DNA from: Bilabrum cf. latius
Lineage: Eukaryota
Assembly: GCA_965178125.1 (NCBI GenBank)
Contig: OZ237770.1
Span: forward strand, 310,001 to 374,000
DNA: 64,000 nt
Reading direction: 5' to 3'
Positions 1,967 through 63,511 of the stretch are shown piece after piece; the stretch's first letter is position 1, and each line of letters opens with the position of its first letter. Below the pieces are notes generated by a model. That model saw only the letters and a program-made list of their open reading frames with translations, was not told the origin of the DNA and did no database searches. The translations under genes and the position numbers were made by a program.

Positions 1967-4651
1967 TCACACGGCCTCGGCCGCCTGGTGCTCTTCCTTC
2001 ACATCGATCGCCTTGTCGTCCTTCTTAGCAGTCCCTGGCTTGGTGTTCCTGCATTTGAAGAAGTAGGTGGCTGCTCCCACCATGACAGCAATTACGACGA
2101 CCACCACCACCACGATGATGATGACCATGCTGGCCCCTCCCTCGTCGTCATCTTCGTCCGTGGAAGGAGCCACAGCCTCCTCCACTTGCTGGTCCTCTTC
2201 TTGTACAGTGACCTCCGCGGCAGTACTCGTCGTATCAACCACCAGTAGCCGGGCCATCTCAACGGGCGCAGCCATCCTGAGCAGCCCCACCAGCGTCTCA
2301 TCATCGGACGTGGTCATGTTGCCACGCAGCAAGGCCAGGATATCCTGCCTCGTCTGCTCCACGTCGGTGCGCTCCAGCGGGATCGTTACGGTGAAATCCA
2401 GCTCGATGGCGGAAACACCATTTTCCTCTGAGCCCGAGGCCTGAAGGGAGCGGCCCCTGCTGGTCGAGGACGTTGTCAGCCGGTCGATGGCCACATCATC
2501 ACTTCTGGCCACGTCCTCGATGGCCGTGATGAAGGGAGTCAGCAGGTTTGACTGGAAGATGGGCGTGGTCACGCTCTACACTGTGGTCCTCGACACCGTG
2601 ATGCGGCTGCCCCTGCGCCTCGTGGGGGACGTGCATGTGTTCCTGCTGGCCGAGCACACGAGTCCACTTGCGCAGTTGGCCGTGGCGATGCAGGTCCTGC
2701 CCTGGGAGCACAAGGGACAGTTCTCAGTGGATGTGTCTCCGCAGTCAATGTCGGTCTCCTGACCGTTGATCTCACCATCACTGCATGTCGATCCCGTGAC
2801 ACTACCGGTGCTAGAAGTGCTCGGCGTCGGCGAGTTGCTGGGACTGCTGGTGATGCTCGGTGTGGGGGAGGTGCTGGGGATGCTGGTGATGCTCGGCGTG
2901 GGCGAGGTGCTGGGACTGCTGGTGATGCTCGGCGTGGGCGAAGTGCTGGGGCTGATGCTCGGCGTGGGCGAGGTGCTGGGACTGCTTGTGATGCTCGGCG
3001 TGGGCGAAGTGCTGGGGCTGATGCTCGGCGTGGGCGAGGTGCTGGGACTGCTTGTGATGCTCGGCGTGGGCGAAGTGCTGGGGCTGATGCTCGGCGTGGG
3101 CGAGGTGCTGGGACTGCTACTCGGGGTGGTTGACGGTGACGGTGACGGCAATACCACCTCATTAAACAAGATCCAAGTAGCCCCGCGATTATTGCCTTCC
3201 CCATCGTCATCGGAGACTGCCCCCACTGCGAGGTCGGTGGTGCCATCTCCGTCCAGATCGCCCAGGGATGCAACGGAAGATCCGAAGTAGTCATCATTGT
3301 CCAGCTCGCCGGTGAAGCTGCCTTTAGTAGAGGAGATCTTCTGGTGGGACTTGACAGTGCCGTCGGTGTGCAAGAAGAGGATCCAAGTAGCCCCGCGGTT
3401 TGAGCCTCCATCATCATCCCAGGTGGCCCCCACTGCGAGGTCGGTGGTGCCGTCTCCGTCTAGGTCGCCAAGGGATGCCACGGAATTTCCGAACTTGTCA
3501 CTATCGTTCAGCTCGCCGGTGAAGCCGCCTTCCGTAGAGGAGATCTTCTGGTGGGACTTGACGGTGCCGTTGGTGTGCAAGAAGAGGATCCAAGCAGCCC
3601 CTCCAGTGCTGCCTCCACCATAATACATTGGTAACCCCACTACAAAGTCGGTGGTGCCATCGCCGTCCAGATCGCCCAGGGATGCCAAAGAAGATCCAAA
3701 GTGGTACCCATAGCTGAGCTCGCCGGTGAAGCCGCCTTTAGTAGAGGAGATCTTCTGGTGGGACTTGACAGTGCCGTCGGTGTGCAAGAAGAGGATCCAA
3801 GCAGACCCGCGGTTTGAGCCTCCATCGCTATCCCAGGCGGCCCCCACTGCGAGGTCGGTGGTGCCATCTCCGTCCAGATCGCCCAGGGATGCCACGGAAG
3901 ACCCGAACTAGTCCCTATCGTTCAGCTCGCCGGTGAAGCTGCCTTCCGTAGAGGAGATCTTCTGGTGGGACTTGACGGTGCCGTTGGTGTGCAAGAAGAG
4001 GATCCAAGTAGCCCCGCGGTTTGAGCCTCCATCATCATCTTGGGGCACCCCCACTGCAAGGTCGGTGGTGTTATCTCCGTCCAGATCGCCCAGGGATGCC
4101 AAGGAATATCCGAAGTAGTCATTGTCGTCCAGCACGCCGGTGAAGCCGCCTTCCGTAGAGGAGATCTTCTGGTGGGACTTGACGGTGCCGTTAGTGTGCA
4201 TGAAGAGGACCCAAGTAGCACCGTGTTGTGTGGTTCCATCATTATCGAAGAGTACCCCCACTGCGAGGTCGGTGGTGCCATCTCCGTCCAGATCACCCAA
4301 GGACGCCACGGATTTTCCGAAATTGTCAGTTCTGCCTAGCTCGCCGGTGAAGCCGCCTTCCGTAGAGGAGATCTTCTGGTAAGATTTGACAGTCAACTTA
4401 GCTCCTGTCGAACTCAGCTCTCGCCTCAAAGAGCGCTCTGATGCCACAGCCATTACGAGGTTGTACCCCATGGCAGCGAATGCAGTTGGGGCAGCCGCCA
4501 CGGCCGCCGCAAGGATGCTGCAACAAGCAAAGAGGGCGGATTCAAAAAATAGAGCGTTCTCTTGAATGGAGTTGCCAAGAGTTGCTGCCAGGTGCGTGAG
4601 ATAAGAAGAAGGTGGACGCCGCTGCACGCGATTTGGAGGGGCACAGTCCAA
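1967..4651 (-). CDS. FG-GAP (integrin-alpha-like beta-propeller) repeat membrane protein with Pro/Ser/Thr stalk, Cys-rich motif and C-terminal TM helix
   Basis: ORFs 3908-4651, 2576-3895 and 1967-2572 are in one frame, separated only by TAG (3908-3910, 2576-2578). Six SLGDLDGDxTTD repeats, a PSxSPT tract, CSDGEINGQETDIDCG and a hydrophobic VIIIVVVVVVVIAVMVGAATYFF segment. Ends at TGA. Start uncertain. Confidence 0.85.
2820..3150 (-). repeat. Coding tandem repeat (SPSTSPTPSI[TS]), mucin-like stalk
   Basis: Alternating 30/36-nt units containing gatgctcggcgtgggcga are visible on the + strand. Confidence 0.9.
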
Positions 4652-5248: not shown

Positions 5249-5279
5249 ACCAACCTCGTTAAGTACACTAACATTCGCC

Positions 5280-7444
5280 ATGGCTGCGGTTGCTCCCTCC
5301 CTCGAAGGCGCGCAGCGGGCGTTCATGTCAACGTGGACCGACCCCAGCTCAACTACCGACGCCTGCAATAGCACACTCCAGTGCCTCATCGACGTCAAGA
5401 CATGGAACAAGGACGCCTTTATCATCTTTCTCCGGGACTGGCTGTCTGGCTCCGCCGCGCCGCAAGCTCTGCACAGCGCAGTACGCTCGCGCGCCGATGC
5501 TCTGCCAGATAAGCTCTACACCGCCATCGTCGACCAGAAGCTGGCGTTCGCCGACAAAGCAGCTGGGACAATCATTTTTGCCCAATGCGTCGCGCATCTC
5601 CACAGCACCTTACGTCAATACCGCATTGAACTGTAGAGGTACACGACGGCCGTCAACAGAGCGGCTCAACGCCTCTTTCTGCTTGCCGCCATCCACCGGC
5701 TAACTTCGGGCGGCGCAGCCGGCGACGCGGCTCTCGTTGACCAACTCAAAACAGATGCCGCCTTCCTCACTACAAGCATCGAAACCGTGCGCGGCACCGT
5801 CGACTTCAGCTCCATGTCAGCCGTCGTCGCGGACGCTGCCACTGACCCTCTCCCTCCATTACAAGTCGGAGAGTACCCACACGGCGAGCCTTCGGCTGCT
5901 CCTCAGTCGCATTCCCGAGGTCAAAACGAACGTCATCACCGGCGAACACAGCTACCAGGCATTCCCAGACGACCTTACCGCCATCCTCGGGGCTGACTGC
6001 GACAACCTGTAGAAGTTCACCAAGACCAGCTCAGGGGTCTTGGGCATCATCGCTTCCGAAGTGCAGGCCAGAGCCGTTGCTCACAACCAACAAACTGTTG
6101 CTTTGGGAGCTCTTCTCCTGACGTCCGGACGGGGCCCCTCATCGGAGCCCGCGCCGGTGCCTCGCAGCGGCAGCAGTGACTCCGCTGCGGCGCCACTGGC
6201 CATCCTCAGCAGCGACCATCTCCTCTTCCCTCCCCGCATGCTCAAGGGCGTCGTCGTGCTAAAGGATAGGGCGGTGACTCGGGCAGCCTTCCTCGACGGC
6301 GCAGTCGCAACCAGCTTCGCCGACCAACTGGTAACATCGATGCACACCCTCAAGGCCGCGGTTCAAGACGACTTCACGGCTGACAAGCTGGGCCCGGGGT
6401 GCACCAGCTGCAGCTATCTACCGTTCAAGGAAGTGCTGTTCGATACCCCAGCTCAAGTGGCAGCCTCACACAGCGCGGTGGCTGCCTATTCCCCGCCCGC
6501 CGCGTACAGCACCGACTCTTCGTACCTGCTGCTGATGGCTCTGACCACGTGCTGCAACTCAGACGCTGGTCTCCCTGGCACCATACCAGCTCATCCCGCG
6601 GCCAGCAAGTCTGTGCACGCCAAGAAGGTTTACCTCATGGCAACCCCGCACGGGGCTCATCCACGTGGACTCGTCGACACCTGGTTGAAGGCGGCCGACC
6701 GTCTCTCCCGCAACCTCGAGACCGCCCTGCCTACGCTCCTGCCCGTAAAAATTTTCGGTCGCCATGCAGACCCTCCGGCAACATCCCGAACCATTCGCAG
6801 GAGCAAGCGCCATGCGGGACATACTGGGTTCCATCGCCGAAGCCCTTCTGTCCCACGTCGGCGTCAGCGTCAGCAAGGCTGAGCCGTACGCAGCACTGGA
6901 CCGCGGCCCATTAGCCGCGGCCGTCGCCAACACGCTGCTGGATCTACTCTTCATGGCTACAAAGCTGGCTACACACGTCTTCCCGCTCTTGCAGAAACTT
7001 CAGCTGTCCGACCATCGCATCATCGTGTTGCTCGGCGGCCTCCTTCACTGCGGCGTCATCAACCCCTTCGCGGCCCCAGCTCGACTCGACAAGCTTCAAG
7101 ACCTCCTCTGGCCCCCCCCACGCCCCTCCCAGCAGCCAGCCGCGAAGCAGGACCGTGCAGGGCACAAGCGCAGCGCCGAGTATGCACGCACTAGCCCAGA
7201 CTCCCGCCCGCCACCCTCCCAACAGCCACGCACGCCGACGGCCTCCTACGGAGGTGGCAGATCCGACACATACGGGTCTGGCCCAGCGACTGGCGGCGCT
7301 GCACAACGCTCAACCCACTCCACCAGCTCCCGGCCGCGGGGTGGTGGTGGTACATGGCAGCGAACCCCCAGCGGCTACGCGGGCGGCAGCGGGCGAGGTC
7401 GCGACCGGAGCTACTCAAACGGTTATCGCGGCCCTCGTCAATGA
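5280..7444 (+). pseudogene. Gag-like ORF1 of the Ngaro element, frameshifted
   Basis: ORFs 5280-5636, 5737-6012, 6040-6882 and 6764-7444 join via TAG (5634, 6010) and two +1 shifts in homopolymers (~5850 ccc, ~6752 tttt). Basic Gly/Arg-rich C-terminus. Called gag from position only. Confidence 0.65.
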
Positions 7445-7531
7445 CATGATGCCGTTGGTGTGTCAGACCGGCTCCAAGGAGCCCCGTCACTGCGCTTCCC
7501 ACAATAGTTCAGCTTCTCCCATCCGAGTACT

Positions 7532-9868
7532 GTGCGCATGTCTACCACACCACCGCCACCCCACCCCGCCCCACACACAGGGGCGGTCTCTCCTGCCCTC
7601 CGGACCCACCTCTCGCACTTCTTCCGCGACGAGGACTTCACGGCCCGCTGCACACCGTCAGCACTCCGCCTGCTCCGCGACCTGGTCACACAGGAGCACC
7701 GAACATACCTGGCCTCGAGCCGGCTGCCGCTCAGTCCCATTAAGGGTTTCTTGCGCGAGCACATCCGGCTTCGCCAAGCCCGAGCTGCACTGCTCGCCGA
7801 CATCCCGACGCCCGATGGCACACCGCCCATCGCTACACGCAGCTCCAACCCATGGGAACTCGCACGGGCCATTCTCATCGCATCTGGCGGACGGGCGCTG
7901 CTAGCTACTGGCACCAAGCTGCCACCAAAGCGACAGCTCCCTCCCTCAGCTATCAAGCTGCACTGCACGATCTGCCGAGCGTGCCGGGTGGCCGCCCCAT
8001 GCCTGGCGGCTCGTCTGCTTGAACGCATCGCCAGCTACGGCGTCCCGTTCTCAGCACATGTCCCTCTCCCGCCCGACCTGCCACTGCTGCGCTCCCTCCA
8101 CCGCGAGTGGCACCAAGCGCTGGCGGCAGCACGGCTGCGCACCACTCGGCAACTACTTCAACAAGACATCTTCGCCATCGAGTCAGCTATGACGGCTACC
8201 CCACCCCGGCCCTTCGACGCAGGGCACACTACGGAGAGCAGCGCCGGCCCGGACCACACGGTCCGCTCCGCCTTGCCTCCCGACGACGATCAGGTTATCC
8301 AGGACCACATAGAACAGCTGGTCTCTGCCGGCGACGCCGAGCAGATTCCGCCGTGCCCCGGTCCCACAGTGGCCACGGTCTTCCTCGTCTCGGGAAAATC
8401 CTGGTCTCCATGCGGCAACACACTGCTTGCCATTTCTGACGACTCTAAGAAGCCCCGCCTGATCATCAGTTTGGTCGCGGCTAACAACAGGCTCGGGCCG
8501 TCGCCTCACTTCAGCTACGACCAACTGGACCCCTACCTCTTCAGCTTATCAAACGGGTCCTTTATTTGCGGCTTCGACTGTCATGATGCCTTTCACTCTG
8601 TCCCACTTGACGAGGGTGCGGCGAAATGGTCAACCTTTCAACACCGCGGCCGCTACTACCGAGCCCTGTCTTTGCCATTCGGCGCAAGATTTTCGCCTAT
8701 CTATTTCTGCTTCATTAGCAGTCATATACCACAGGCCATTAAACGCCGTGCTGCTGGCCTGCCGCACGGGTACGTCTCCGTTCTTCAATATAGCGACGAC
8801 GGCTCCGCTGCAACCCCCAGCGAGATCGGTACCTTCGAATCTCTGCTCACAGCTTTGCTGGCCATACGGCTGATGGGCATGACTGTTAAGCGCTCCAAGC
8901 TTCAGCTCCCTGCGCAGCGACAGGAGCTACTCGGCTGTTCGATCATCACCGTTCCCAGTATCTCCATCACACTCACAGCCGGCAAAGCGGCCCGAGTTCG
9001 TAGACTACTAACCGTCGTCTACAAACTCTCCACTGAGCCTTCAGCATACTTCCCGCTCAAGGCCCTCGGCACACTGGCTGGCCTGATCGAGTACGCCGCA
9101 TGGGTCGTCCCGGGCGGGCATTGTCGCCGCAGAGGCTTCCACGCGGCCTGCTCCGCCGCAACCGGCCGACACCCGGCTCGCAACCCTTTCGCACTCCTCG
9201 AGGTGGCACAAAGACATCTTCAATTCATGGCGGAGCACTTCCCGCCAGCGGTAACACCTTGCGAGCTGCCCGGCTTTCACCTCCACCAGGCGCCGCGCGA
9301 TTTAGCGGAACCAGCAACCGCAGCCGTTTACGACGACACCGTACTTCCCCTCATCTGCGGGTATTCGGACGCTTCCGACACAAACATCGCTTTCTTTTTG
9401 AACGACAGCGATTCCGTTACGGTCGAGAACCTCCCGCGGGATCTGCGCTCTACAAGTTCGTGTGCACGTGAGCTGTTCGGTGTCTTGCAAGGCATTCGCG
9501 CTTGCCTTCGCTCGCACAGATATCCTGCGCGGATACGGTGGGCATGCGATAACACAGGCACTCTGTTTACGCTGCTACGCGGTTCCGCGAACCTGCCTGA
9601 CTTCGTCCAAGCTCGTCTGGAGCACACACTCGACGCCGTGCGAACCGCCGGATGCTACATTGAAGTGGCTTGGCTCCGACGCGACACTCCCCACATCGCT
9701 CTGTGCGACGCAGCGGGAAAGTTGTCTGACGATTAGTTTCTACTCTTCGCAGACTCCCTGCAATGCGGCATTCCGACAACTAGGCATCTATCGCGATCCG
9801 CAAGGCGCACGCTTTTCGGGTTTTAGCCCGATCCGGACGCTCCTCGCGTGCCAGCGGACCAGGTATAA
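7532..9868 (+). CDS. Reverse transcriptase-RNase H (DIRS/Ngaro pol)
   Basis: RT motifs FDCHDAFHSVPL, LPFGARFSP and QYSDD. RNase H motifs YSDASD, ARELFGV, CDNTG and DAAGK. Reads through TAG 9734 (and one more TAG) to TAA 9866-9868. Confidence 0.9.
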
Positions 9869-11872: not shown

Positions 11873-11874
11873 AT

Positions 11875-14082
11875 ATCCGTCGGATGTAACGGAACGCAAC
11901 ACTTTTTTCTGGTTTTTGCCGGTTCCGGATCAGAGATTTGCGCGGCGACAAAAGGGATTCGGAGTCCATTATCAACACAATCCGGCTAATTCGACGCTTG
12001 CGAATCCATCGCGGCGGCTCTCGTCGCCAGAGCAGCTCAGTAAGAGGGTAAACAGTGAATTCAAAGTATTAGCTTTAGCAGGGCCCTGGGGGGGATTGCA
12101 CGGCGCCGCAATTGTGTGATGAGTGTAGCAACGATGTGCAACAGTTTCACAAATCGATATTTAAGGTGCCTTAGACGATATGGTTTGTCTATTAATTGAA
12201 ATATGTTTGATCTATTATCATTGTCTTCCCTCCTTCACCCGATCGCCTCCATCAATGTCGTCCATGGCTTGGCGTGCCTGCGCGAGGATCGGCGCAGCCG
12301 CATCTGCACCCATGTAGGCAGACACATATGCCTCAAGAAACGTAACTCCAGTCTGTAGAGCTTTCGCCTTCGTCTCTGCCTTTGCCAAGGCGGAGCGCAT
12401 CGTCCCAGGGGCCAATGCGCGGTGCTGTAGCAGCCGCTCTCGAACCCCCCCAACAAAGCCACCCTACCTGTTCCTGGTATCTACCACAGATGCAGGCACC
12501 GGCTAGGATAGCATCTCCTTCTCCATGATTGGCATGACTTCCTTTGCCACAGTCCCACCTACGATTCGATCAACGACGGCTCCAGTTCCACTGCGGGGCC
12601 TCTTCGCCTGAGATGGTCGGTCCTCATCCTCATCTGTCTCATCATCTGTGTCGACTTCCAGCCCAAGTATAGCTTGAGCAAAGGGGCTCGTCAATTCAGA
12701 CGCACTTTCTGCTGCTTCTTCTGCCGCTGCACTGCTGCTGCTGCTGCTGCTGCTGCTGGATGACGCGGCTGCGCTCAGCACTGTCGAGGATCCAACAATG
12801 TCATCGGCAGACAGGACATCCACCCCCTCCGCCGCTTGCGCCCCGGCCTCTCGTCTTGCAAGCAAAAGAATTGGAGAAATAAGCCTGTCTGCCTGGGTCG
12901 GCAGCACCTTTTTCTCCTGTAGGTGGATCCAGTCTGCAGGGCTGATCAGCTTGGTCGGGTCAAGCGGGAACTGGCCGTTGTCCTCGAACCCCTTGCTCGC
13001 GTTGGTGCTGTTCAGGATTGCGCCGTGGCAGGCCTCGTACACGATGGCTGGGGCTAGCGACTCGTCAAGATTCACTCGAGGAGGCTTTTCACTCTCTGGA
13101 ACTGGAGCACCTTGGTACTTGGCCTGTAGCTTGCGGATCCTCCTCGTGTTGACCTTGCGCAGAGCTCGCTGGAAGGAGCGCACACTCGCCCTGAGCTTAC
13201 GCTTGAAGGCCGCAAAGATGTGCGTATCAAGCACCTGCATCTGGTCAGTCAGTCCTGCGGGAAGGAACACAAGCCTTATTCCGTACTTCTTAGCAACTCG
13301 CTTTGCTATCTCAGTGCAGTGGATGCCGAGGTTGTCCATGATCAGCACGGCGGGGCACTTGCTCGGGTCCTCGATCTTCAGAGCTCTGGCCTCGTCCTTC
13401 GCATCGCGAGCGGCCTTGGCAAGCCTTCTTCGGGTAGCCAATACAGATTCACCTACCTCCTGCATCAGACGAGCAAACGTTCCAGTGTTTGACCACGCTC
13501 CCGCATTGTCATAGATTGACGTGCAACTGCACGGCGTCGTACAGTTTCCGCGAACAGAACCTCAGCTGGCCAACAAAGCTTCCTTGTCCCCACCTCACAA
13601 TATCCATAAAGCCGTGCCTCATTGAATTTGTCTCTCCACCTGTACAGGGTCGAAGGGTTCGGTACTATGCTATCCGCGGAAGTCGCAGCCATCTCACGAA
13701 GCCGTGCCTGCACCCCCCAGTTCGTCCCCGAAATAGATTTTTCCCTCCAAGTTTTGCAGAATTGCCATGCAAAGTCTCTATACTTTTCACCCTCAAGAAA
13801 ACCGGGCAGTGCTTTGTCTGAAACAGGTGCACTAATCGCTTTGGCATCGCACACCGTTTGAACTTCTTCGTGCAGCGCCGTCCTGATACTGTGTGCAAGC
13901 ACGTTGGCATCCTCCCACGCTTTCCCCAGGCGAGTTGATCGAACAACTCGACCTAGACGGTCTGCTGGGGCCGCTCGCTTTCTCTTTCTAGTCCGGTGCA
14001 TGGATATTTTGAAACTGTTGCGCATCGTTGCTTGCCAAATTTGGTGTGACGAAAGTATCGCGGCAAGTTACAACCGACGGAT
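11875..14082 (-). mobile_element. pogo/Tc5-like DDE DNA transposon, internally deleted, nested in the Ngaro element
   Basis: Inverted termini atccgtcggatgtaac (11875-11890) and gttacaaccgacggat (14067-14082), 15/16 match. Encloses transposase-like ORFs. Confidence 0.8.
12218..14025 (-). pseudogene. pogo/CENP-B-like transposase remnant (HTH plus DDE_1 domain)
   Basis: 13465-14025 has HTH-like PSTLYRWRDKF. The next frame has GAWSNTGTF, AVLIMDNLGIH and VFLPAGLTDQMQVLDTHIFAAFK (DDE_1 pattern) and reads through two TAGs to TGA 12218. The region carrying the first catalytic Asp appears deleted near 13510. Confidence 0.75.
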
Positions 14083-14397: not shown

Positions 14398-14405
14398 TCG
14401 ATTTA

Positions 14406-32232: not shown

Positions 32233-32285
32233 TCTAGTCTATCACCTAGAAAAGGACCGGTTTAAGACCACCAACCTGGTCTTAA

Positions 32286-46219: not shown

Positions 46220-48240
46220 TTACTTTCCCTTGCTCTCCCTTCGTTCCCACTCAGCCTCCCTAAGCAGCCTTGCGCACTCCTCATGGCCACACAACCGAGC
46301 CGCCTCCAGCGGACCCACCACCCTGGTCCCGCCCGCCCCGTCCTCCACCTCGCCCTTGATCTCCAGCCCGCCCGCCAGCTTGCCCAGCTTCAGCCTCTTG
46401 GCCAGCTCCATGGGTCTGCCTCTCAGCACGCACTCAAACACCATGCCCGCGTCCCTCTTGGCCTCTACCCCTCTCCTCCATCGTGTGAGCTGCCGGGCCA
46501 TGGATCCGAGCAAGTGCTCCAGGCGAGCAAGAAATGCACCAGGCACCCGCTCTGATCCGATCCTCTACCCCCCTCTCGCCTTCGTCCCCAAAATCTCCCT
46601 CAGTTTCTTCGTGAAGACATCCCCGCTGCCCCCGCACGCACCCAGGGCCTCCTTGAGCTCTGAGCATTTTGAGGGACACAGGCTAGGCGCCGTGAACTTG
46701 ACCGAGTAATTCAGGGCCTGCAATGGGTGCGATGAGTAGTAATCGAGTGGCAGGCCCTGCATTTTGACTCATGGACACTGTGCATGTCAACGTGACATGG
46801 GAATCGAATCATGCCGAGGACACCCCTTCATTCAAACGTAAATTGCTCACACCTCCGTGGGCGTACATCAGCGCTCCCGCGTCTGCCAGCACTGCCACCG
46901 CGAGCATGTGCCCCCCTTTGCTCGCGAGGTGAAGGGGCCGGTGGGTCGATACCTGCTGGTCCGTGAATACAACACACAAGGATGATGCAGTCTAGGATAA
47001 GGCGGCCGAAATGGGAGGGTACACTGGGACGAGCGGGGCCGGGCTGTTGCCCGCGCAGGGTGCAATGGGACATTAAAACGAGATCTAACCGAGGTTGCTT
47101 CCACATTGGCCCCTGCACTACACAAGATCCTGCAGACCTCTGCGTGCCCCCCTCCTGCTGCCAGGTGCAGCGCTGTCAGCCTTTCCTGCGCGTATCGCGT
47201 GTGTGCAGGAGCATAGATGGATCCAGATTGGTGAAGCATGCACGCCCAGGAATACTATAAAAGCATTGGAGCGCATCGATCGAGCATGTATGTCAACGCG
47301 CTACGAACGTCTCGATCCAAGCTTGACTTCCAAGCTTGACTTCACATTAAGCAGGTAGTACAACTTCGGTTGCCTCTCACGTTGCAGGTCACAGTGACGG
47401 ATGCGCCCGCACGTACTAGCACCCGGCAGGCAGGTGCGTTGCCAGTTTCCGCCGCAACGTGTAATGGAGTCTTGTATTCCTGGCGACATAGAAGTGGCAG
47501 TGGAATGGCGCTAAAGCGCCGGGTCTGTGGGATTGAAAGTCGGGGGATGGGTCGTCATGCCTGGGGCGAGGGTTGATAGGCCCATGGTGCGGTCTCACCT
47601 TGTCTCTGGAATCTATGCAGGGAGAAGGACAGGACCCGAGCAGAATCTGCAGGCTCTATCCGTGCGTGTCGGCGGCACAAGCTGCGGCATAGTGCAACGC
47701 AGTCTTGCCCTCCTGCGACCTTGGATGGCGACCGGTGCCAGTGCCGGTGGGAGGAAGCGATCAGGGTGCAAGACGTGCTCGCCATCGGCGGCGTCTTGGA
47801 GAATTAGATGCAAGGCACGTGGAACTGCAAACACATACTGTGCTGCAAAGCTGACAGCCCTGGTTGGAATCTCACACCATCCTTGAGCTCTGGACGCGCG
47901 CCTGCAAAGCGGAGCTGCATGCACACCTCGGGGTGCCCAACCCTAGCAGCTTCGTGAGCCATCAGCCTACCTTGCTGCAATACCGGACCTATTGATACTT
48001 TGTACTGAACTTGACGGACGAGTGCATTCGAGCCCAATAATCCACAGTTTTGTTGCAGAAGGGTATTAGATTGTCTTACATTCTAGATGTTGAGGATCGC
48101 ATTGTCAGGAATCTTTGCGAGGCAATCTTTCACATTATCAAAAATACTAGACCGTATGGCGGCAATCAGATCCTCTTGCAGTGCCAACTATGGACTGCGG
48201 GTAAATTGATTGGCTGCCAGGAACAGAGGTGGTCCTTCGC
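46220..48240 (-). CDS. Multi-exon ankyrin-repeat protein with shared C-terminal module
   Basis: Exons KTPLHVAAETGNAPACRVLVRAGA, LTALHLAAGGGHAEVCRIL and MAHEAARVGHPEVC. The last exon crosses TAG 46565 and ends at TAA. The 5' boundary is approximate. Confidence 0.65.
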
Positions 48241-51540: not shown

Positions 51541-53509
51541 TCAACCTTTTAGCACCAGCTCCATCCACCTCCGGCGACAGGTCTCCTCCGCAGCGGCCAG
51601 GCGATCTGCAACCAGCGACCACTGGCACTCTCCCGAGCCGTACCCCGAGCAGCTGCCCATGCCAGCGCTCGTCGCGCCAACCACTTGAACGTTGATCATC
51701 TCTTTCACGCACTCGTCATGTCCCCCCAACCGAGCCGCTTCCAAAGGACCCACCACACTGGTCCCGCCCGCCCCATCCTCCACCTCGCTCTTCATCTCCA
51801 GCCCGCCCGCCAGCACGCCCAGCCTCAGCCTCTTGGCCAGCTCCATGGGCCTGCCCTCTTTGGCCGCCTGGAACACCATGCCAGCATCCCTCTTGGCTTC
51901 ATAGCACCGTCTGAAGTCCACGAGACGAGCGACTCTCAGGTACCTCCTCCTGGTCGCAGGCGGGACAATCTGCACCGGCATGGTCGCAAGATCCGGAGCC
52001 GAATCACCTAACGATCCGATCCAATGACGGGGTGCCCCCTGATGAGCTCTGCATAGCTCCAGCACAAACCGGAACTGGCTCCCGCCTTCCCCGCAGCACC
52101 AGGCCGCCCTCCGCACGGCCATGGCCCGTAGCAGCCCCTGCACTTCGATCCACGCGCTGCCGCACGTCCACAATTCATGCCACGCGTCATCCTGATCCGG
52201 ACTGGGCACCGTTGATCCCGATGGCCTATCAGGCAAGCTTACCTCGGCGTCGGTGCAGGGCGCAGCCTGCGTCTGTTCCCCTGGCCCTTGCTCGTCCTCG
52301 TTGGCTGCCTCACCACTGGGACTGGCACCGGCAACGGCACTGGTACTAGCATCATTGTATTCGTGTTCCATCGCGCGTTGCCCTCGCACCTTGCTAAAGA
52401 GGCCACTTGCGGCGCTCACCGGGTTCATTGCCCGCAGCCTGGCAAGAAGGGAGGTGGCGCTCACCGGGTTCATTGCTTGCAGCCTGTCGAGAACGGAGGT
52501 AGGAAGCAGCAGCCCATGCTCGCCTTCATCTTGCTCGCCCTGGAGCAAGTGCTCGGGTGCTCGCTTCTTGGCCGTGGTAGAGTGCAGAGGGCAGGAGGGG
52601 CCCTCCGTAGGACCATCCGTGGGGGTTCGGAGCAGGCATCGGTGTGACGAGTGATTTGGGTCCAGGACGGCGGCCACGAGAAACGAGTCGCACTGCTTGG
52701 TCGCCGCGTGCAGCACCGCGCGGCTGATCTTTTCGGGCGGCTGCTTCGACAGGTAGCTCAGCAGGATAGGTGCGACCTGCGACGCTACTGGCGTTGCGTT
52801 TGCACCACATGCCATCTCAAGTGCGCTTGTTGACCGTTTCTGCGCAGCCCGCACAGGCAATGAAACAAATGCAGCAAGTAGACTGGATCAGAGTCTCCGA
52901 ATTTCCCCGGCCGACTCTTCTAGGCATGTACGCTCTCGGAAGGAGGACAATCACTCGGTAAGCACGTAAATTACTCAAGATTTGTCTAGCTGCTCACTCC
53001 AAATTTGGATCCCATGCGCACGTACATGCACGAGGCGCCGTGATCAAGTAGCGTTCGAGATATATGCTCATTTCCACAAGAGACAGCGATCTGTAGCGGA
53101 GTACGCTACTGCAAAGTACAAAGATAAAGTACGCGTATACGGTATGGGATCGTGATGGCGGGTGCGCACTGGTGTGTTGACCTGTGATGCGGGTAGGCGG
53201 TTGCACTTTCTCCCCTGGCAGTCTCACGATGGCCACACGGGCCAGGCCACGGCAATCCACTGCAGCGCCATGACAGAGCAGTACTTCAACACATTTTTTG
53301 GCATTGTATCGCACCGCGTATCCTAGGGGAACTTGGTCAAACAGCCTGTAGTCTATCAGCAGTCGGTGTGGCTTCGATTCATCTTCAAGGAGAGCTTGCA
53401 GAGTTTCAGAATCATCTTTTTGAATACAAGACGCTAGATCTTTCAGCGAATTTCGGACATGTGAAACTGCTTCCATCGCGTGCGGTAGTAAGCGCTGATC
53501 TGGCGGCAA
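51541..53509 (-). CDS. Ankyrin-repeat protein with shared C-terminal module (intron-containing)
   Basis: PLGYAVRYNAKKCVEVLLCHGA exon plus long exon 51541-52860 ending in the shared module. Confidence 0.75.
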
Positions 53510-53757: not shown

Positions 53758-55471
53758 TCAGCCCAGCAGTGGCCCGCGCTCTTCCTTCTCCACGATCCGC
53801 GCCCCCACTCCCAGCTACTTCAGCGCTCGGAACCGACTCCGCATCTGCCTGCGCCAGTCGGGGTCCTCGGGATCGTCAAACGCGTGCTCCTCCACGTACT
53901 GGTCGAGCCAAGTCTGATCTGCCTTGCGCACACGCATGACAGCCTTCAGAGCAGACTTGATGGACCCCCCTGCCTTCGTTTGCGCGAGTGCCGCCTCCGC
54001 CAGCACCTTCACGCACTCGTCGTGCCCCCCCAACCGAGCCGCCTCCAGCGGACCCACCACCCTGGTCCCGCCCGCCCCGTCCTTCACCTCGCCCTCCATC
54101 TCCAGCCCGCCCGCCAGCACGCCGAGCCTCAGCCTCTTGGCCAGCTCCATGGGCCGCCCATGGCTTGCTGCCTGGACCACCATGCCCGCGTCCCTCTTGG
54201 CCTCATGGCATCTCCTGAAGGCCAGAAGCCGATCGGTCCGCTTATACCTCTTGCGCACTTCTCCTGCGGCGTAACCTCTCTCGCATAGTATAGCGATGAG
54301 CTTGTGGATGGATCCGTGGCACTGCACTGCAGCGCGCTTGATGGCACTGGCGGCCTGCCGGAGTGCGGGCACCTCGATTCGCATCCCGACGCTGAAGTCG
54401 CTGCCGTTGCCTCCTTCGTATTCGGCCCACTGGTCCATGGTCGGGTACATCGTGCAGCTTTCCGTCGGATCAAGTGCCGCCAGATTCTCCTGCAGAGTGC
54501 CTCTGGGGGCGAGGAGGGGGGCATCGCAGAAACTCTGCTCGTCTGCATCGGGACGCTTGGTGAGTGACGAGAGGTCGCCTCCCTCGGGCATCGGCATCTT
54601 GGACAGGAGCAAGCCCGGGTGCGAGTCCTTGACAGCATCCAAGGCTGCAATCATATCTCCTGCTCGGCCACATGATGCCAGGTTCAGGACGAATCGGAAG
54701 ACCCGCGGGCGTGACAGGGAGCCGATTGACTTGGCCATCCTCGCCTTGATGTCAGCAGGCACTTGCGGCTCCAAGGCCACTTGGAATGCGCTGATTCCCC
54801 ACTGCGGCAATTTTGATCAATATGGTTTGGACTAGTGTATGTTCAGTGCCTCAGATTCTAAGCTTACTTCGCAGTCTCAGGTCCTGTCGAGCGAAAATGT
54901 ATAGTAGATGGTGCGTTAGCGTACGTTGGAAGTTGCTTACCCACTCTGCTTTGCAGTGACCATTTCCAGGGTGTAATGGGTCTGCTCCTGCCTTGCTCAG
55001 CACATCAACCATATCTGAACTTGGGCAGCGGATCGCGTTCACTAGCGGCGAGATCGGCTGCGGGAGAATACTGGCTCGATTAGGGCAAGGCATCCCAGGA
55101 TGTGTGTCATGAATCTCACAAATATACTAATATTAAACAATACGATTACTCACTGTTTCGGCACCGTCAGGTTCGTGTACTTTGGAGCTGTTGGGGCAGG
55201 CCCCAGCCGCGAGGAGCTGCTCAGCACAAGCAGTTCGTCCAAGGTCGGCAGCAATGCCCAGTGGAGTTTGCATCGGTTTTTCAGAGCCCATCGCGAACAG
55301 GAAAGCATGTCCAGCTTCTTTGATTTCTGCAAAAGTGAGACATTGCAGCACCACTGCAGCTCGATCGCCGATAGCTTGAAGCATAGCCTTCAACTGTTCA
55401 GGCTTGTCCCTCTTGATAATTTGAACCATGTCAAAGACCTCTTGTTGCACTCTATCGTCGCTCTGACTCAT
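53758..55471 (-). CDS. Ankyrin-repeat protein with shared C-terminal module (intron-containing)
   Basis: QTPLGIAADLG, ISPLVNAIRC...AGADPL and exon 53815-54810. Continues past TAG 53815 to TGA 53758. Confidence 0.75.
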
Positions 55472-56055: not shown

Positions 56056-57671
56056 TCATTGCACGCCAATGCAGATTGCCACATGCTCACGCAGGCAGTC
56101 CGCTACTCGCTGCGCCAACGCGGCCCGTTTGGCCCGCTGATTGGCGTCGTCTGCTTCGGCCTGCTCCAGCACCTTCACGCACTCCTCGTGCCCCCCCAAC
56201 CGAGCCGCTTCCAGCGGACCCACCACCCTGGTCCCGCCCGCCCCGTCCTCCACCTCGCCCTCCATCTCCAGCCCACCGGTCAGCACGCCAAGCCTCAGCC
56301 TTTTGCCCAGCTCCATGGGCCTGCCCTCTTTGGCCGCCTGGAACACCAGGCCAGCATCCCTCTTGGCATCCACACAGCGCCTAAAAGACATCAATCGGCC
56401 TAATCGAGCGAACCTGCGGCGAACCTCCCGGCCCACCTTGGATTCAGATCCCAGCAGTGCAATGCACCCAACCCCGGACCCGTGGCTGAGCATCACCGCC
56501 CTCTGGATCACCCCCACGTCCCACCGAATGCCAGGGTCCGCTACCATTTCCTGCGTGCTGTCACTGTCGCTGTACATGCTGGTATCTTCGCTGCTGATGC
56601 TGATGCTGCCACTGTCGCTGTCCCCGTTGCTGCTGATGATGCTACTGTGCTGCCGGTAGTCCACCCCACCAGCTCCCGCTGTAGTATGAGAGTGCATGTA
56701 CTCAGGCCAGACCAAGCAGCACTTGTCGGGGTCTAGGGCGACGAGGTTCTGTGCGAGGGTGGCCCCCCCGGGCAGTGGCAGCTTCTCCACCCGTGGACCG
56801 AGGTCGAAGGACGTGCGGCTGCTGCCACTGCCGCTGCTGGTATCTCCATCGGTAGGACCGTTGCCTTGAGTGGTTCCTTCTTTTCCTTCTAGTCTGTATC
56901 CGAGCATGCCCGGGTGCGAGTCCCAAAGCGCGTCCATGGCTGCGATCATGTCACCCAACATGCCGTAGGATGCTAAACTCGCGATGTAGCGAGCAAGCGT
57001 ATCCGGTGAGAGGCCAGACACCGCTCGGATCATGCTCGCTCTGATTCTTGCAGGAGCCTCGGGCTTCAGCGAGAGCTGGAACGCGCTCGGCGATTGCTGC
57101 AGGGCAGGAAACCAGAGGAGGGCTCGAGCTATTGAACGTGCTGGCACGTTGCATGGATTTATCATATTCAATGAATCGATTCCTCACCCCCGTGATTCTG
57201 TCTGGGTAAATGCAAGGCAGCAACGGATTCGCCTTTGCGGACAGCAAAAGCTCAACCAGCACCGCATGTCTCGCAGCGACGGCAGTTGATAAGGGTGATT
57301 CAGCCTATGCTTTAGAATGTTACCATGGTGGGATATTCCGATAATTTTGGCTTCATTTCGCGCCAAGCATACGTGTGGTACCGACTCACGTACATCGTTC
57401 CCGACGCAGAGCCGTCTGGATTGGCACCATAATGAAGCAATACAGACGCGCACTCGACCCTATTTTTCTTTGCAGCTGAATCAAGTGCAGTCTGGCGCAC
57501 AGTGAATCTGCGCGCAGCTGCGTGCTTCGGATGTGCCGTGCGCTTGGTCCAGGCAAGTGCGTTGATCGCACCGAGGTATCCGCCCTCCTCATCGTCCAGG
57601 AGCTTCTTCAGCTCAAGAGGGGCATCCAAATGAATAGTCTATACTAGTTCCTCGGCCAACCTGCGTTGCAT
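56056..57671 (-). CDS. Ankyrin-repeat protein with shared C-terminal module (intron-containing)
   Basis: TALDSAAKKNRVECASVLLHYGANPDG, LLLSAKANPL and exon 56056-57085. Ends at TGA. Confidence 0.75.
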
Positions 57672-57780: not shown

Positions 57781-60757
57781 TCACTCCACTGGCATCCCCG
57801 CGGCCCTCATCCACCTCTCAAGCGCATTGCATGCCTCCTCGGCGCCATCCTCTACGCCCTCATCGTCGTATTTCAGGTGGATCTCCTAGACTTTCTCCAG
57901 GTCTTCCCGGAATGAATCCAGCACGCTTACCAGTACACCACGGGCTGCCTGCCTGCAAAGATCGTCTGTTTTCTACGCGTCCTGCAACACCTTCACGCAC
58001 TCGTCATGCCCCCCCAACCGAGCCGCTTCCAGCGGACCCACCACCCTGGTCCCGCCCGCCCCGTCCTCCACCTCTCCAGTGATGTCCAGCCCGCCCGCCA
58101 ACGCTCCTTTAATCAACCACATGCCTAGCTCCATAGGCCTGCCATGCGCCGCGGTCCGCACCACCATGCCCGCATCCAGGTGAGCGTCGTGGCACCTCCT
58201 GAAGGCAAGCAACCGATCGAGCCTAGCGTACTCCCTGGCGTGCTTGAAGCCGCGTCTCTCGCACGAAAAGGCCTATCTGGGGTGTCTGCACAGCAGTGCG
58301 ATGAATCGAGGGATAGACCCGTGGCACATGAGCGCCGCTCGCTTGATGGCACCCATCGAGATGAAATCCTGGCAGTCCTCTCCGAACTCTTGCGCCCACG
58401 ATTCGCGCCAACACTCCGAGTTCATGTCCGCATCGTTGTCTTCAGCCGCTCTTTCAAAGTCCCACCCCTTGCTGCAGTATGTGTCTGTGGTCATGTCGGC
58501 GAGGTTATCTTCAAGCGTGCCCTCGGGTGCTTCCAATGATACACGGAGCCCAGCCCCAGCCCCATCACCATCGTCACCGTCGTCTTCATCATCACCGCTG
58601 CCACTGCCGCTAGTATCATCATGGTCGCTATTGTCATCACTGCCACCATCGGTGGAAACGTCATCGATAACCCCATCATCCCTAGTAGAAGGGACTATTT
58701 TGCCGCTCGCATTCGGGCCCCGCTCTGTGCTGGCGCTGCCCAGCTTCACATCCAGTAGGCCCAGGTGCCTGTGGCGCGCAGCGTGTAGCACCGTGGCGAT
58801 ACAGTCGGTGGCGTGGCACGACGTAAGGTTCATGATGTACTGGAAAAGGGTCTTTTCGTCAAGTCTACCCACGGCTTCCTCCAAGGCTGCTTGGGAGTGG
58901 CGCGCGCGTCCGTACAGGTTATTCTAGACTAGACATGGCCTTAGGCCCCTTCCCCCGTCTGCCTTACGGGGGGGAAGGGGCCGGGAGCAGGGCGCACCTC
59001 GTCCCGAAGCGAGGGAAGCCCAGCGCGGGCGTGACTCGCAGGGTGGTCGCACAGCTGGTCGCAAGCTGGTCCGGTGGAAGGCCTGGGGGGAGCCGGATGA
59101 ATGGCCTTGCCGGCTGCTGCCCTACGATATTTCGTGCAGACATTGTTGCAACAAACATAGTATGCAATCTATAGCCATGGCATTTGAACGTGTGCGCGCA
59201 GGGTTGCCGGGGTCGCTCACTTCCACAGGTTGTCACTGCCACGGCATCGTCGTAGCACCCAGTGTTGTACACACGAACGCACCAAAGCTGCGAGCCAGCA
59301 AGTTCAGTTTAACTTGATCTTTGCACGACTTGTTGGTATTGTGGTGTAAGTCACAGCTCTTCTGAGCATCGCCACGTATCCCAGTCGTGTACAGAAAATC
59401 GCCACGTCACGGTGGCGTTGCCGAGCGGCGAAGATGAATTCCTGAAACACACACTCGCCTCGCAGCGATGCATGCACCTCGAGCAACCGACTGCCACACA
59501 CAGAGTTGGAACGCAGCAGTCGTGCATCGTGGAGCCAATATCTGTCCCATTACAATGGCGCTGGTGCGGGCGCCTTCTGGCCGCCCTGCGAGCAGCGATG
59601 TCCAGATTTCGGATGGTCGGGCCGCTCAGGAAGATGAGTGGAAATCGGTTTCGGGCTCGGCCGTCGGGGCAAATTTCCAATGCATTGCCAGCGTCGGAGC
59701 TCGTCGGAGCGCGGCGCGTAGGTAACTTCAGGTCTCAATCTAGCGATCCGGCGGGGCGGCGGGGCGGGTTGGCGTGGTCGAGCGGAGCGAATCGCGAAAA
59801 CGACGGAAAGTTTTGCAGCATTGCCCGCCCAGCGGCTGCCGCTGCCAGAGGGTGCGTTGCAATGTTTGTCGAAATACGCAGAGATTTGCAAGAGGAATTT
59901 TCGAGTTAGGTCCTCGTTCGCGAGCGAGGTCCCCGGACGTCCGATTTCGGCTTGCTGCCGACGGAATTCACGAGGTTTTTCGCCCCGGCATGCGCTTTCC
60001 CAGCGGTGGGCGTGAAGCCGACTGGCACACAAAGTTGCGGATGCGTGATATCAAATGCTTGGTTGGGGTCCGATGCCGGGTCCGGTGCGTGTGCGCGGCG
60101 CTAAATCCTTGTGCCAAGGTAGGGTGGGAGCGTGTCTATATATAATATCCTTAAGAGCAAGCTGGAGCGCGCTGCACGGCTGCGGGAATTTGTTGCTTTT
60201 GGTCAGGGACGGTCAATACAATATCGATCATTCGCATGCTTACGGATTGATACTACTGGTGGTCTTTGTGCGTTGGCTCACTCCTTTCTTGGTCTTGAAG
60301 CCACGGCCAGGCAGCGTCGGATCGGCACCGGCCTCGGACAGCATGCGAGTCAATCTCAAGTCACGCCCTTTGACAGCCGTATATAGCGGAGGCTATGTCT
60401 GCACCAAGAAGAGGAAGACAATCAATCGGATCTACAATCTTGCTGCGTGTTGCTGCGCGCCTATAATACAGACGGGTAGTGCTTGCTGAATCTAACCCTG
60501 CCTGGTGCTCCGTCAGGACTCGCACCGGCATCCAGCAGAAGCTTCACACACTCTGTACTAGACCTATCTACGGCCTCGCTGAGCGCCAAGTCTAGCGTCG
60601 TGCATGCAATGCTCGGTTTGAGGCTCGGCCCTGCACCGCCACTCCCCGTGCCAGCTGCGGATTCAGGCCCGTACAAAATCGTTCGCAGACTTGCATGGTC
60701 CTTTCTTTTGACAGCTTTGAGTATTCTCTTTGTGGTCTTGCGATCTGCGGCGAGCAT
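57781..60757 (-). pseudogene. Ankyrin-repeat paralog with shared C-terminal module, interrupted by a Helitron-like insertion
   Basis: 5' exons at 60461-60757, ~60280-60398 and 60146-60180. The 3' part (57781-58928) reads through TAGs. Removing 58929-60145 restores SALQLALKDI*NNLYG in frame. Confidence 0.7.
58929..60145 (-). mobile_element. Non-autonomous Helitron-like element (~1.2 kb)
   Basis: On the minus strand the 5' end is TTATATATAGA. The 3' end has a GC hairpin (ggccccttccccc...gggggaaggggcc), 11 nt, then CTAG. Inserted between A and T with no target duplication. Confidence 0.75.
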
Positions 60758-60895: not shown

Positions 60896-63511
60896 TCACG
60901 TGACAGTCCTTCCAGACCCCCCGAACAGCCGCCGCACCGTGGTCTCCATGCCCCAGGCAGCGGCCGGATCCGATTGGGCCAGCGCCTGGGCCTGCTCCAG
61001 CGCCCGGATGGCCTTGGCGGTGGCAGGCGACAGGATGCTGGCCGCACTCGTCACACCAATACCACCGCGTTTGCCGGGGCTGGCGCTTGTCCCTGTCCCG
61101 AATGCCGCTGACTTCCCTAGGCCGATGCCAGCACTCGTCACACGCTGGTCCACCGCCCTTCGAGTGGACTGCGCGGCTCGCTTGAGCGCAGCCAGCCCGC
61201 GCACCGCCGACTGGTGCAGCCCCGGCGCACTCGTCACACCCGAACGCATCGAGTGCCCACCGCCGCCGCCCCGGAAGGAGCTCGTCGAGCTCGCGGCATG
61301 TTCCACTCTGCCGGCGCCGCGCATTGCGTCCTCTACGATGGAAGCCCGCGTGTCGCCCATGTACCCCCCACGCCCCTGACCCCGTCCCTCGCCGGTTTCT
61401 TTCGATTCCGGATCCCAGTGCACCCGTGCGGTGCTGCTCGCAGCTGCGGCGGACGGCTTGCCGTGGGCCGGATCGGCGGTGTCAGAACCGCCGTGCGCTG
61501 CACCCAGCCCCAGAGCGTCGTCCAGCGAAGCATCCACCGTTCGATCCACCGCGGCACCACCACCGTGCGATGCACCCGCCCCACGGAATCCGGTCCGACC
61601 ACCGCCCAGCCGCACCCCGCTGGCACCCATCCCGCTCGCACTCGTCACACCGAGCCTCGCCGCCTCGCTCTGCGCCTCCCTTAGCATCCTCTCGGTGCTC
61701 TCCTTCTCCTCTTTCCTCCTCCTCTCCCCCTCTTGCTCTAGGGCACGGCGGTACTCCGCCGCCTCCCGCTGGGACCTCCGGAGGTTCTCCTCCATCTCGT
61801 GCCTCACCGACTCCGATCGAGCGGCCTCGGCGGCTGCCAGGTCCCTCTGCAGCGTCTCACGGGCCTCGTCGACTTCCTGGGCGCTGCGGCGGGCCGCCTC
61901 CAGCGCGTCGCGCAGCTCCCCCTCGAGTTCCGCAGCGCGGCGCCGCAAGGAATCCTCCCGCCGACCAGCGGAGGACTCGGCCTCCCGCAGCCGGGCCCGC
62001 AGGGAGCTGGCCTCGCCCTCCGCGGTTGCAACCGCCTGAAGGGCTTGGTCTCGCTCGCGCTCCAGGGCGGAGCACCGGCCCGCGAGTACGGTGAGGTCCG
62101 AGCGAACCTTCGCGAACTCCTCGCCGCGCTTGCTCATCTGCTTCTCCTTCTCCTCCGCCTCTGATTCTGCCTCGGCCGCCCGCTCCGTCGCCTGCCGCAG
62201 CGCCCGCCGTAGCTCCCCCTCCTGCTGCTCCGATCGGCGCAATGCCTCACGGACCTCCTTCAACTCCCCCCGCGCCTCCTCCTCCCCCTGCCGCGCCTGA
62301 CGAGTGCCCTCTACCGCCTCCGATCGAGCCCGTGAGGCATCTCCCTGCAGCTCAGACACGCGGTCCTGGAGCCGCCTGCACTCGGACGAGAGCTCGCGCA
62401 GCCGGGCCCGAAGCGCCCCCGCGGCCTCCTGCGCCTGCTTGCCCTGCTCCTGCACCCTCCGACTCGCCTCCTGACGGGCCCGCTGCGCTTGTTCCCTGGC
62501 ACGCTCTGCCTCCCGCCGAGCCCCCGCAAGCTCCTGCTCGAGCCCCGCCGCTCGCTCCGCCGCTGCCGCTGCCTCGTCCTGCGCCAGCCGCCCTTGTCTC
62601 GTGGCCCCCTCCAGCTCTCGCACCCTCCTCTGGAGCCGATCCACCCGGGACTGGAGCGCGGCCCTCTCCCCCTCCGAGCGGCGGTAGGCCTGGGGGGAGG
62701 GCTGCAGCACGCCCAGGTCACTCGTCACACCGGTGGTGGTGGAGGAAGGGGCGCCGGCAGACTGTGAAGGTTCGCTGATACCCGTCCACTCGGGGACGGT
62801 CGGCGGTGTGACGAGTGATGATTGCAGCGCTGGTGCAGCTGTGATGACTGCTGCTGCGTGGCCCGTCCCACTCGTCACACCATGAGGACTGACGGGTGCC
62901 ACGGTATGGCCGATGGAAGGGGTAGCTGCCGGGCCGTGCGAATGAGGGTGCGCCCCGACGCTTGTGTGACGAGTGGGCTGCGGCTACCAGGAGGCAGCAT
63001 CGTGAGCGAGCACCCCGCTCCGAGCAAGTGCTCCGTTGGGAGCAGCAGCAGTGCCATTGGCAGATGCGTCGTCACGCTGCCAGTGCTGGTCACCGTGCTG
63101 CGTCGAGCCCTGCATCTTGCGGATGGCGTGTGGCGAATGCAATGCACTGCGACGCAGCGGTGCTCCTCCGGGAGCCATGGAAGCGCCCATTCCTAAACCC
63201 GACACGCCCGATTGCGTCGCAGCGACCGATTGCTCGTCCAAGCTGGCGGCGGGATTGCCGCCAGCTGCAAACTGGTCGCCTTTCCCGAGGTCTGCTCCGC
63301 TCCATGCACTCGAATCCTGAAATGTTGATCGTGCGGGTCGCTCAGTACCGTCCTGGCTCGTGGAGCCGCCAGGCTTTGGTGTGTCTGGCGCAAGCTGCGG
63401 CAGCAGCCTTCGCAACTGCTGATGAGGGGAATTGCCTGTGGTTGCCATGCTGCGAGTGTATGAATTAATTAATGGAATTGCAGATTTTACCTGAAACATT
63501 GATCGTCCCAT
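60896..63511 (-). CDS. Long coiled-coil protein
   Basis: 62984-63511 and 60896-62902 are in frame across TAG 62984. E/R/A-rich heptad region. Ends at TGA. Confidence 0.75.

Follow-up and report, generated by a model that had tools for sequence, protein, structure and literature searches.

How does the nuclear genome of Bilabrum cf. latius read the triplet TAG? The question is raised by a 64-kb stretch of its DNA with a GC content of 59% (contig OZ237770.1 of assembly GCA_965178125.1, positions 310,001–374,000 of the forward strand; hereafter the window, numbered from its first nucleotide). An initial annotation, made from the sequence alone, proposed that UAG is a sense codon there, probably for glutamine, and that UAA and UGA remain stops. 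Our analysis arrives at the same reading, to which we give a probability of roughly 0.85: this GC-rich (59%) nuclear genome reads UAG as sense, most probably as Gln, and terminates translation at UAA and UGA, with UGA as the main stop. The window is eukaryotic nuclear DNA, as the initial annotation had also held, because it contains GT..AG introns, an open reading frame (ORF) for a reverse transcriptase, another for a DDE transposase, and cellular gene families (FG-GAP, STELLO, Sulfotransfer_2, LRR_6, TPR_12, Ank and MRJP).

ORF length carries the first part of the argument. Under the standard code, the longest stop-to-stop ORF in the window has 742 codons and 24 ORFs reach at least 300 codons; when TAG is freed, these values rise to 1745 codons and 50 ORFs. 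Freeing TAA yielded 29 ORFs of at least 300 codons and left the longest unchanged, and freeing TGA, the commonest stop, yielded 68, the longest having 867 codons. With TAA and TGA as the only stops, nine ORFs of 1745, 1203, 1115, 986, 979, 908, 900, 875 and 807 codons were found; as a chance control, the window was simulated 50 times with a second-order Markov model, and the longest TAA/TGA-bounded ORF then had a mean of 484 and a maximum of 702 codons.

Seventeen ORFs, together 11,770 codons, contain 57 in-frame TAGs (4.84 per 1000 codons), which occur in 15 of them and would make up about 10% of all Gln codons if TAG encodes Gln. No TAA and no TGA lies in frame, and the ORFs end in TGA (13) or TAA (4), in agreement with the initial annotation, which had described more than 50 TAGs in otherwise intact genes that lack internal TAA and TGA and end in one or the other. 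These zero counts follow from the way in which the ORFs were drawn, so that ORF length is the actual test. In a 14-gene subset (10,302 codons), 50 TAGs, no TAA and no TGA are found in frame, versus 74 and 54 TAGs, 35 and 40 TAAs, and 175 and 177 TGAs in the other two frames of the same genes; TAG is tolerated in frame about as often as off frame, whereas TAA and TGA are kept out of these frames. The abundance of UAG in bona fide coding genes is beyond chance, as judged from ORF lengths, Pfam matches and homologues. Periodicity of GC content at third codon positions across the window was too weak for stop-independent gene finding.

Homology was found to run across the TAGs. The MRJP/yellow-family gene (22377–23612, minus strand; 411 codons ending in TGA, with TAGs whose first bases are at 23276, 23258 and 22601) has 38 homologues, all of which carry PF03022, and the best of these, P0001, aligns at 62% identity over 94% of the query across all three TAGs; together with a match to MRJP1 (5yyl, E=1.2e-09), this places the protein in PF03022. 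A direct hmmscan of its 572-residue reading, with X at the TAGs, returned no family at E<=0.01. The named relative in the clusters is Colponema vietnamica, at 36% identity, the others being MMETSP transcripts. In the STELLO glycosyltransferase fusion (32286–35633, plus strand; 1115 codons ending in TGA; TAGs at 33339, 34755, 35526 and 35622), which has ten homologues, the PF03385 stretch (residues 307–423) spans the TAG at residue 352. In the sulfotransferase-family protein (35912–38209, minus strand; 765 codons from the ATG at 38209, ending in TAA; PF03567, E=4.2e-09), which has seven homologues, the Sulfotransfer_2 stretch covers residues 192–318 of the 877-residue reading and spans three TAGs. 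The TAA of this gene coincides with the exact end of homologue P0055 (query 807–877 against 1–71 of 71), indicating that UAA is a stop; this agrees with the in-frame exclusion and the terminator counts in supporting the proposal that UAA and UGA still terminate.

The TAGs are also retained in sequences that bear the marks of splicing. A stretch of the window is present in seven public runs from three studies, and in run X5 an 834-nucleotide contig joins six exon pieces over five CT..AC gaps, which correspond to GT..AG on the minus strand, in a partial ankyrin-like gene (46548–47974, minus strand) whose five introns measure 119–195 nucleotides. Two of these splice joints occur in X6 and none in the DNA run X4, so that X5 and X6 contain RNA. 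Two in-frame TAGs of this gene, at 47656–47658 and 46565–46567, are kept in the spliced contig (X5 record 13). Further X5 contigs, spanning 29991–31661, 32255–35836, 39180–40511 and 41041–43783, match the window with no other letters and no gaps. The first (record 9) covers GTc, to which the STELLO fusion is paralogous in its C-terminal half, without differences; the second (record 10) holds the whole STELLO fusion ORF with short flanks; and the last includes ten TAGs of a large membrane protein (40537–45555, minus strand; 1672 codons ending in TGA, with 13 TAGs, or 14 when read stop to stop). The ankyrin-repeat protein ANK39 (39279–40214, plus strand; TAGs at 39525 and 40146, ending in TAA; PF00023, E=1.1e-04) is covered by X5 record 11 and X7 record 23, again without differences. 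In total, 19 TAG sites of the window are unchanged in X5 contigs, and two are covered by X6 and two by X7. Confirming TAG in mRNA was a check suggested by the initial annotation, and mature mRNA does retain UAG without editing it or splicing it out, as judged from assembled contigs of a run that is not recorded as RNA.

If TAG were only a stop, the in-frame TAGs would have to reflect pseudogenes, mutation from C to T resembling repeat-induced point mutation (RIP), base-calling errors, unrecognised introns, or editing of the mRNA to CAG. Some TAG-bearing ORFs would suit such an account, being mobile elements (the reverse transcriptase ORF, 7538–9868, plus strand, and the DDE transposase-like ORF, 12218–13465, minus strand) or possibly a decayed paralogue (par20, an ANK-motif ORF at 20461–21630, minus strand, with 4 TAGs and no ATG at its start), and the runs are contigs, not raw reads. 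However, decay or RIP would also have produced TAA, for which 108 CAA codons are available, as well as TGA, and each is found in frame at 0 of 10,302 codons. The same sequence recurs in the seven runs of the three studies; the alignments continue without a break across the TAGs, whose flanks are conserved, which speaks against introns there; X5, the run with the spliced transcript, has contigs that retain 19 TAGs unchanged; and a metagenomic relative, L001, has a sense TAG of its own at a Gln site. On this evidence we rejected all five of these origins, editing (of U to C) included, and regard a TAG that acts only as a stop as very improbable.

Which residue is inserted was assessed from the alignments. 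The TAG at MRJP residue 113 falls in the YVQS column, where 29 of 33 homologues have Q, four have L and none has E. At residue 119, Q is found in 9 of 33 homologues and in 8 of the 11 displayed sequences, and residue 338 lies in a variable, gapped region. The TAG at residue 1081 of the STELLO fusion aligns with a Q of GTc, its neighbouring paralogue (alignment E=9e-42). In the RNI-like leucine-rich repeat (LRR) protein with an ANK-motif C-terminus (48459–51377, minus strand; 972 codons, 6 TAGs, ending in TGA; PF13516 LRR_6, E=6.2e-14), the residue after the first L of the LxxLxL motif is Q in seven, R in five and TAG in three of 21 motif instances. The motif examples cited in the initial annotation are present in the window (with X for TAG: YVXSIWIDX, the LRR units, AQRXFPP against AVQWPP, and WXQWQDXHW), as are its TAG counts for the sulfotransferase (8), LRR protein (6), membrane protein (about 14), STELLO fusion (4) and MRJP (3). 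Residues 60–1000 of the membrane protein found no homologue among candidates of 950–3024 amino acids, and its 13 TAGs therefore add nothing on residue identity.

A Codetta-like tally, based on profile hidden Markov models built from the homologues, gave summed log-odds over nine match-state TAG columns of 9.6 bits for Q, 6.4 for E, 4.6 for K, 1.3 for S, -8.9 for Y and -10.2 for L; by raw odds, Gln is favoured over Glu about tenfold. As a calibration, the mean Q score was 1.07 at TAG and 1.01 at canonical Gln codons of the same proteins, and Q was top-scoring in 44% of TAG columns versus 42% of canonical Gln codons. When nine-position sets of canonical codons for each of the other 19 residues were resampled, the observed margin of Q over that residue was attained most often for Glu, at a rate of 0.0006 in 5000 draws, and never for Lys, so that each of the 19 is rejected. 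On these profiles, Leu, Ser, Tyr and Trp, the residues of other variant codes, are clearly excluded, and conserved Gln is matched at UAG positions, in a small sample. Pyrrolysine-type recoding is disfavoured by the Gln columns, and we know of no eukaryotic pyrrolysine system.

Relatives from metagenomes bear on both the residue and the distribution of the code. A scan with a single MRJP protein found no relative, and a scan with the MRJP alignment A5 found four loci, L001 to L004. L001 (52% GC) encodes a 64%-identical MRJP with an in-frame TAG of its own, at a position where the window, P0001 and P0002 have Q. The codons are reciprocal: a CAG in the window faces TAG in L001, and two TAGs in the window each face CAA in L001. 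L002, a 59%-GC contig, encodes a 41%-identical MRJP (L002:9608–11602) whose stop is a TAG at the point at which P0011 and P0013, two of the homologues, terminate as well; used as a control of the method, it showed barely altered ORFs when TAG was freed, and it looks like a standard-code relative. In L003 and L004 no in-frame TAG was found, L004 being frameshifted. The sense TAG of L001 and the TAG stop of L002 suggest that the code change is confined to a clade containing the organism of the window and L001, as judged on the MRJP family alone. Taken with the MRJP columns, the STELLO paralogue, the log-odds and the resampling, the L001 codons make Gln the residue that TAG most probably encodes, as first proposed.

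Several observations weigh against this reading. The residue call depends on nine match-state columns dominated by two in MRJP, and the lead of Q over E, 3.3 bits, ranks within the lower 12% of the margins obtained with canonical-Gln sets. Many TAGs lie in variable columns, both in the STELLO fusion (R5/S/E/K/V/T) and in the sulfotransferase (H/P/N/E, E/S/P, L/L/K, K/S/D/H and F/E), and an 83%-identical fragment has K at the site of sulfotransferase TAG 286. The par20 TAG at 20686–20688 aligns with a Glu conserved in five of five paralogues. A degenerate repeat unit of the tandem-repeat and TPR_12 protein (24158–27622, plus strand; TAGs at 25766, 25772 and 27545, ending in TGA; PF13424, E=1.3e-23) reads TAG..TAG where its sister units read CAG..GAG, so that TAG 25772 faces GAG. 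On the transcript side, all runs are Logan contigs, which drop rare variants, and not raw reads; the contig differences are those among the rows listed, beside which there are 76 further difference rows; X5 is labelled 'RNA? (probably DNA)', no run holding the stretch is recorded as RNA, and the RNA content follows from the spliced contig; and the transcript comparison covers the stretch outside the MRJP gene.

These alignments are also what would favour reading UAG as Glu, or as another polar residue such as Lys. Glu comes second in the summed log-odds, the TAG of par20 and TAG 25772 face Glu in their paralogues or sister units, and Lys occupies the sulfotransferase site; in addition, precedents are described in the available text of two sources, with UAG as Glu in the ciliate PL0344 (PMC11687900) and UAR (UAA and UAG) as Glu in Blastocrithidia (PMC12153298). 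Under TAG as Gln, however, the change of one base turns GAG (E) into TAG (Q), and both Glu alignments are therefore ordinary substitutions. The MRJP column at residue 113, in which E is absent and Q is shared by 29 of 33 homologues, the reciprocal TAG, CAG and CAA codons of L001, and the rarity with which canonical-E or canonical-K sets attained the observed margin of Q over the residue concerned (0.0006 and 0 of 5000 draws) all speak for Gln. The initial annotation had named Glu as the main alternative on account of two TAGs; both alignments, at 20686–20688 and 25772, are real, but Glu as the assignment was rejected by the resampling (about 0.0006, on nine informative columns), and we judge it, like Lys, to be improbable.

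A further point against a plain sense reading lies near the ends of genes. Five of the 17 ORFs have a TAG 3–25 codons before their TAA or TGA: the reverse transcriptase ORF (9824), the TPR_12 protein (27545), the STELLO fusion (35622), ANK39 (40146) and the ANK-motif paralogue par53 (53815 region). The expectation is 11.4% per gene, giving a binomial P of 0.037 with a threshold chosen post hoc, and these TAGs may have arisen by chance, may still act as stops to some extent, or may be what is left of earlier TAG stops that are now read through; conserved C-termini were available for none of the five genes. The code could accordingly be ambiguous, as in Condylostoma, with UAG read as Gln inside genes and yet terminating some gene ends by context, or the reassignment could be recent and have left former TAG stops with read-through tails. 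Besides the five TAGs, the tail after the TPR_12 TAG is Arg/Gly-rich and non-coding in look, and L002, which looks like a standard-code relative, has a TAG as the stop of its MRJP gene. Set against this are the marginal P value, the absence from the window of any homologue-conserved C-terminus that coincides with a TAG, the up to 13 internal TAGs per gene, which require efficient read-through, and the precedent of Iotanema spirale, in which UAG served as a stop in no examined transcript according to the parts of the source available (PMC5304391). We consider an ambiguous or very recent code unlikely, though the least so of the alternatives to UAG as an ordinary Gln codon.

A sense UAG that leaves UAA as a stop is rare. 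UAA and UAG nearly always change together. According to the accessible text of a recent survey, reassignment of UAG alone occurs in few lineages, namely a fornicate, a rhizarian, a single genus of green algae and a small number of ciliates (PMC11687900). The closest counterpart of the window is the fornicate I. spirale, for which the available portions of Panek et al. 2017 describe the same codon table, with UAG alone as Gln and many in-frame UAGs per gene (PMC5304391). There, Gln-dominated columns account for 41% of TAG positions at 90% conservation, and in the window for 44% of nine columns (PMC5304391). Stop usage differs strongly: I. spirale ends 104 of 119 genes in UAA and 15 in UGA, whereas the window has 13 TGA and 4 TAA among 17 ORFs (Fisher P about 1e-7; PMC5304391). 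Also in contrast to I. spirale, the window has 59% GC and carries retroelements.

The ciliates Hartmannula sinica, Trochilia petrani and Protocruzia tuzeti likewise reassign UAG alone to Gln and keep UAA and UGA as stops, and a suppressor tRNA with a CUA anticodon is the route proposed for them in the sections of the survey drawn on here (PMC11687900). In the same sections, phyllopharyngean ciliates use UGA least (1.7–13.1% of genes) at 27–54% GC, unlike the UGA-dominant, 59%-GC window; stop usage is UAA-dominated both in these ciliates (PMC11687900) and in I. spirale (PMC5304391). UAG is also uncoupled from UAA in the rhizarian exLh and the TARA phyllopharyngean metagenome-assembled genomes (both Leu), in Scotinosphaera (Ser) and in PL0344 (UAG as Glu, UAA as Lys), as far as the available text of the sources extends (PMC11687900, PMC5304391), but the residue differs from the Gln of the window, where the scores of Leu (-10.2 bits), Ser (1.3) and Glu (6.4) stay under the 9.6 bits of Gln and each of the three is rejected by resampling. 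The more widespread UAR = Gln codes (NCBI table 6 type), which the survey text at hand lists for many ciliates, hexamitin diplomonads, some Ulvophyceae, Streblomastix and Amoeboaphelidium, also turn stops into Gln, probably through mutated tRNA-Gln anticodons, but they read UAA as Gln too (PMC11687900). The window, by comparison, has no in-frame TAA in 11,770 codons, and 4 of its 17 ORFs end in TAA. Its reverse transcriptase ORF, DDE transposase ORF and introns of 119–195 nucleotides are atypical of ciliate macronuclear DNA.

As for how UAG would have come to be read as Gln, a tRNA-Gln with the anticodon CUA, one mutation away from CUG, would decode UAG without wobbling onto UAA, and the release factor eRF1 would have lost or weakened its recognition of UAG. 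Both steps are drawn from established knowledge of such codes: in the text available to us, a CUA-anticodon tRNA that does not wobble onto UAA is proposed as the route in other UAG-only codes (PMC11687900), and a change of the GTS motif to GGS in I. spirale eRF1 is proposed to weaken UAG recognition (PMC9161772). In the 64-kb window, ARAGORN found no tRNA genes and Rfam gave no matches, and the eRF1 gene does not lie within it.

The lineage is probably one in which this code was previously unreported; full-text literature searches, with subscription journals and supplements outside their reach, found no paper on a eukaryote that combines a high GC content and termination at UGA with reassignment of UAG alone. 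That the case is independent is plausible, as stop usage and GC content differ strongly from those of Iotanema and the phyllopharyngean ciliates. More specifically, and tentatively, with the odds falling a little short of even, UAG as Gln with UAA and UGA as stops may have arisen independently in a GC-rich, UGA-terminating lineage that is neither ciliate nor fornicate, being shared by at least two organisms, that of the window and that of L001, and absent from L002, and perhaps recently enough that former TAG stops remain visible.

The remaining features of the window extend this inventory. An FG-GAP repeat membrane protein (1967–4471, minus strand; 834 codons ending in TGA; PF01839, E=4.3e-40, 6 stretches) has TAGs with first bases at 3910 and 2578. 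The retroelement as a whole (5737–9868) and the DDE_1 ORF hold two in-frame TAGs each: in the former, at 9734 and 9824 of an ORF that ends in TAA and carries PF00078 RVT_1 (E=1.2e-10), and in the latter, at 12505 and 12466 of an ORF that ends in TGA and carries PF03184 DDE_1 (E=1.7e-06). These mobile elements either follow the code of their host or else are decayed. The N-terminal two thirds of the TPR_12 protein consist of long, nearly perfect tandem repeats (24158–25760 and 25780–26200), with units of about 22 residues and eight-residue GAVQDEKA units; both strands are open across them, which gives rise to spurious antisense ORFs. GTc (30075–31502, plus strand; one TAG at 30384, ending in TGA) is a free-standing gene immediately upstream of the STELLO fusion and is 29% identical to the C-terminal domain that is fused there to the STELLO-type glycosyltransferase (BLASTP E=9e-42 to 34386–35633); this C-terminal domain has no Pfam match. 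The large membrane protein likewise matched nothing in Pfam, and a Pfam search of ten further ORFs gave one ankyrin match only. A coiled-coil, low-complexity protein (60896–63511, minus strand; 871 codons ending in TGA) has one TAG, at 62986.

The TAG count of the sulfotransferase depends on the start chosen, with eight from the ATG at 38209, nine from 38545 and 13 stop to stop. Just upstream of the start lies a repeat element (38269–38998), with a depth of 71–790 in DNA run X4 and loose ends at 38269 in all four runs, and for this reason the long upstream extension of the ORF, with five more TAGs, is probably not coding. Among the homologues of this protein, the 83%-identical fragment P0049 has 138 amino acids on a contig of 2737 nucleotides, far shorter than that contig allows; possibly, this is a gene prediction that was made under the standard code and truncated at sense TAGs of a close relative.

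A highly conserved, ankyrin-like C-terminal block of about 70 residues is common to six ORFs (20461–21630, 48459–49400, 51541–52815, 53758–54810, 56056–57171 and 57781–59178). Among them, par53 (53758–54810, minus strand) has a single TAG 19 codons before its TGA, par57 (57781–59178, minus strand) has five TAGs and ends in TGA, and the TAG-free paralogue at 56056–57171 matched generic ankyrin clusters only in an atlas look-up. The depth in DNA run X4 reaches 1122 in the bin 46009–46675, versus a baseline of about 27.7, showing that the ANK-type motif is that of a family present in very many copies in the genome. Most genes of the window look intronless; the ankyrin-like gene at 46548–47974 is the only spliced gene seen, beside neighbours of up to 1672 codons that appear to have no introns.

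With 15 of 17 ORFs containing TAG, standard-code gene calling truncates most proteins here, and annotation and the protein sets derived from it therefore need to be translated with TAG as Gln. Lineages in which UAG alone is reassigned are natural tests of how the release factor and tRNAs distinguish UAA from UAG, and the range of conditions known to permit this change would be widened by a genome that has 59% GC, relies mainly on UGA for termination and has nevertheless lost UAG as a stop. L001, with its sense TAG, and L002, with its TAG stop, offer a bracket for dating and dissecting the change. If its independent origin is true, this would be the first such code in which genome composition favours rather than disfavours UAG, which would speak against a route through codon capture at low GC.

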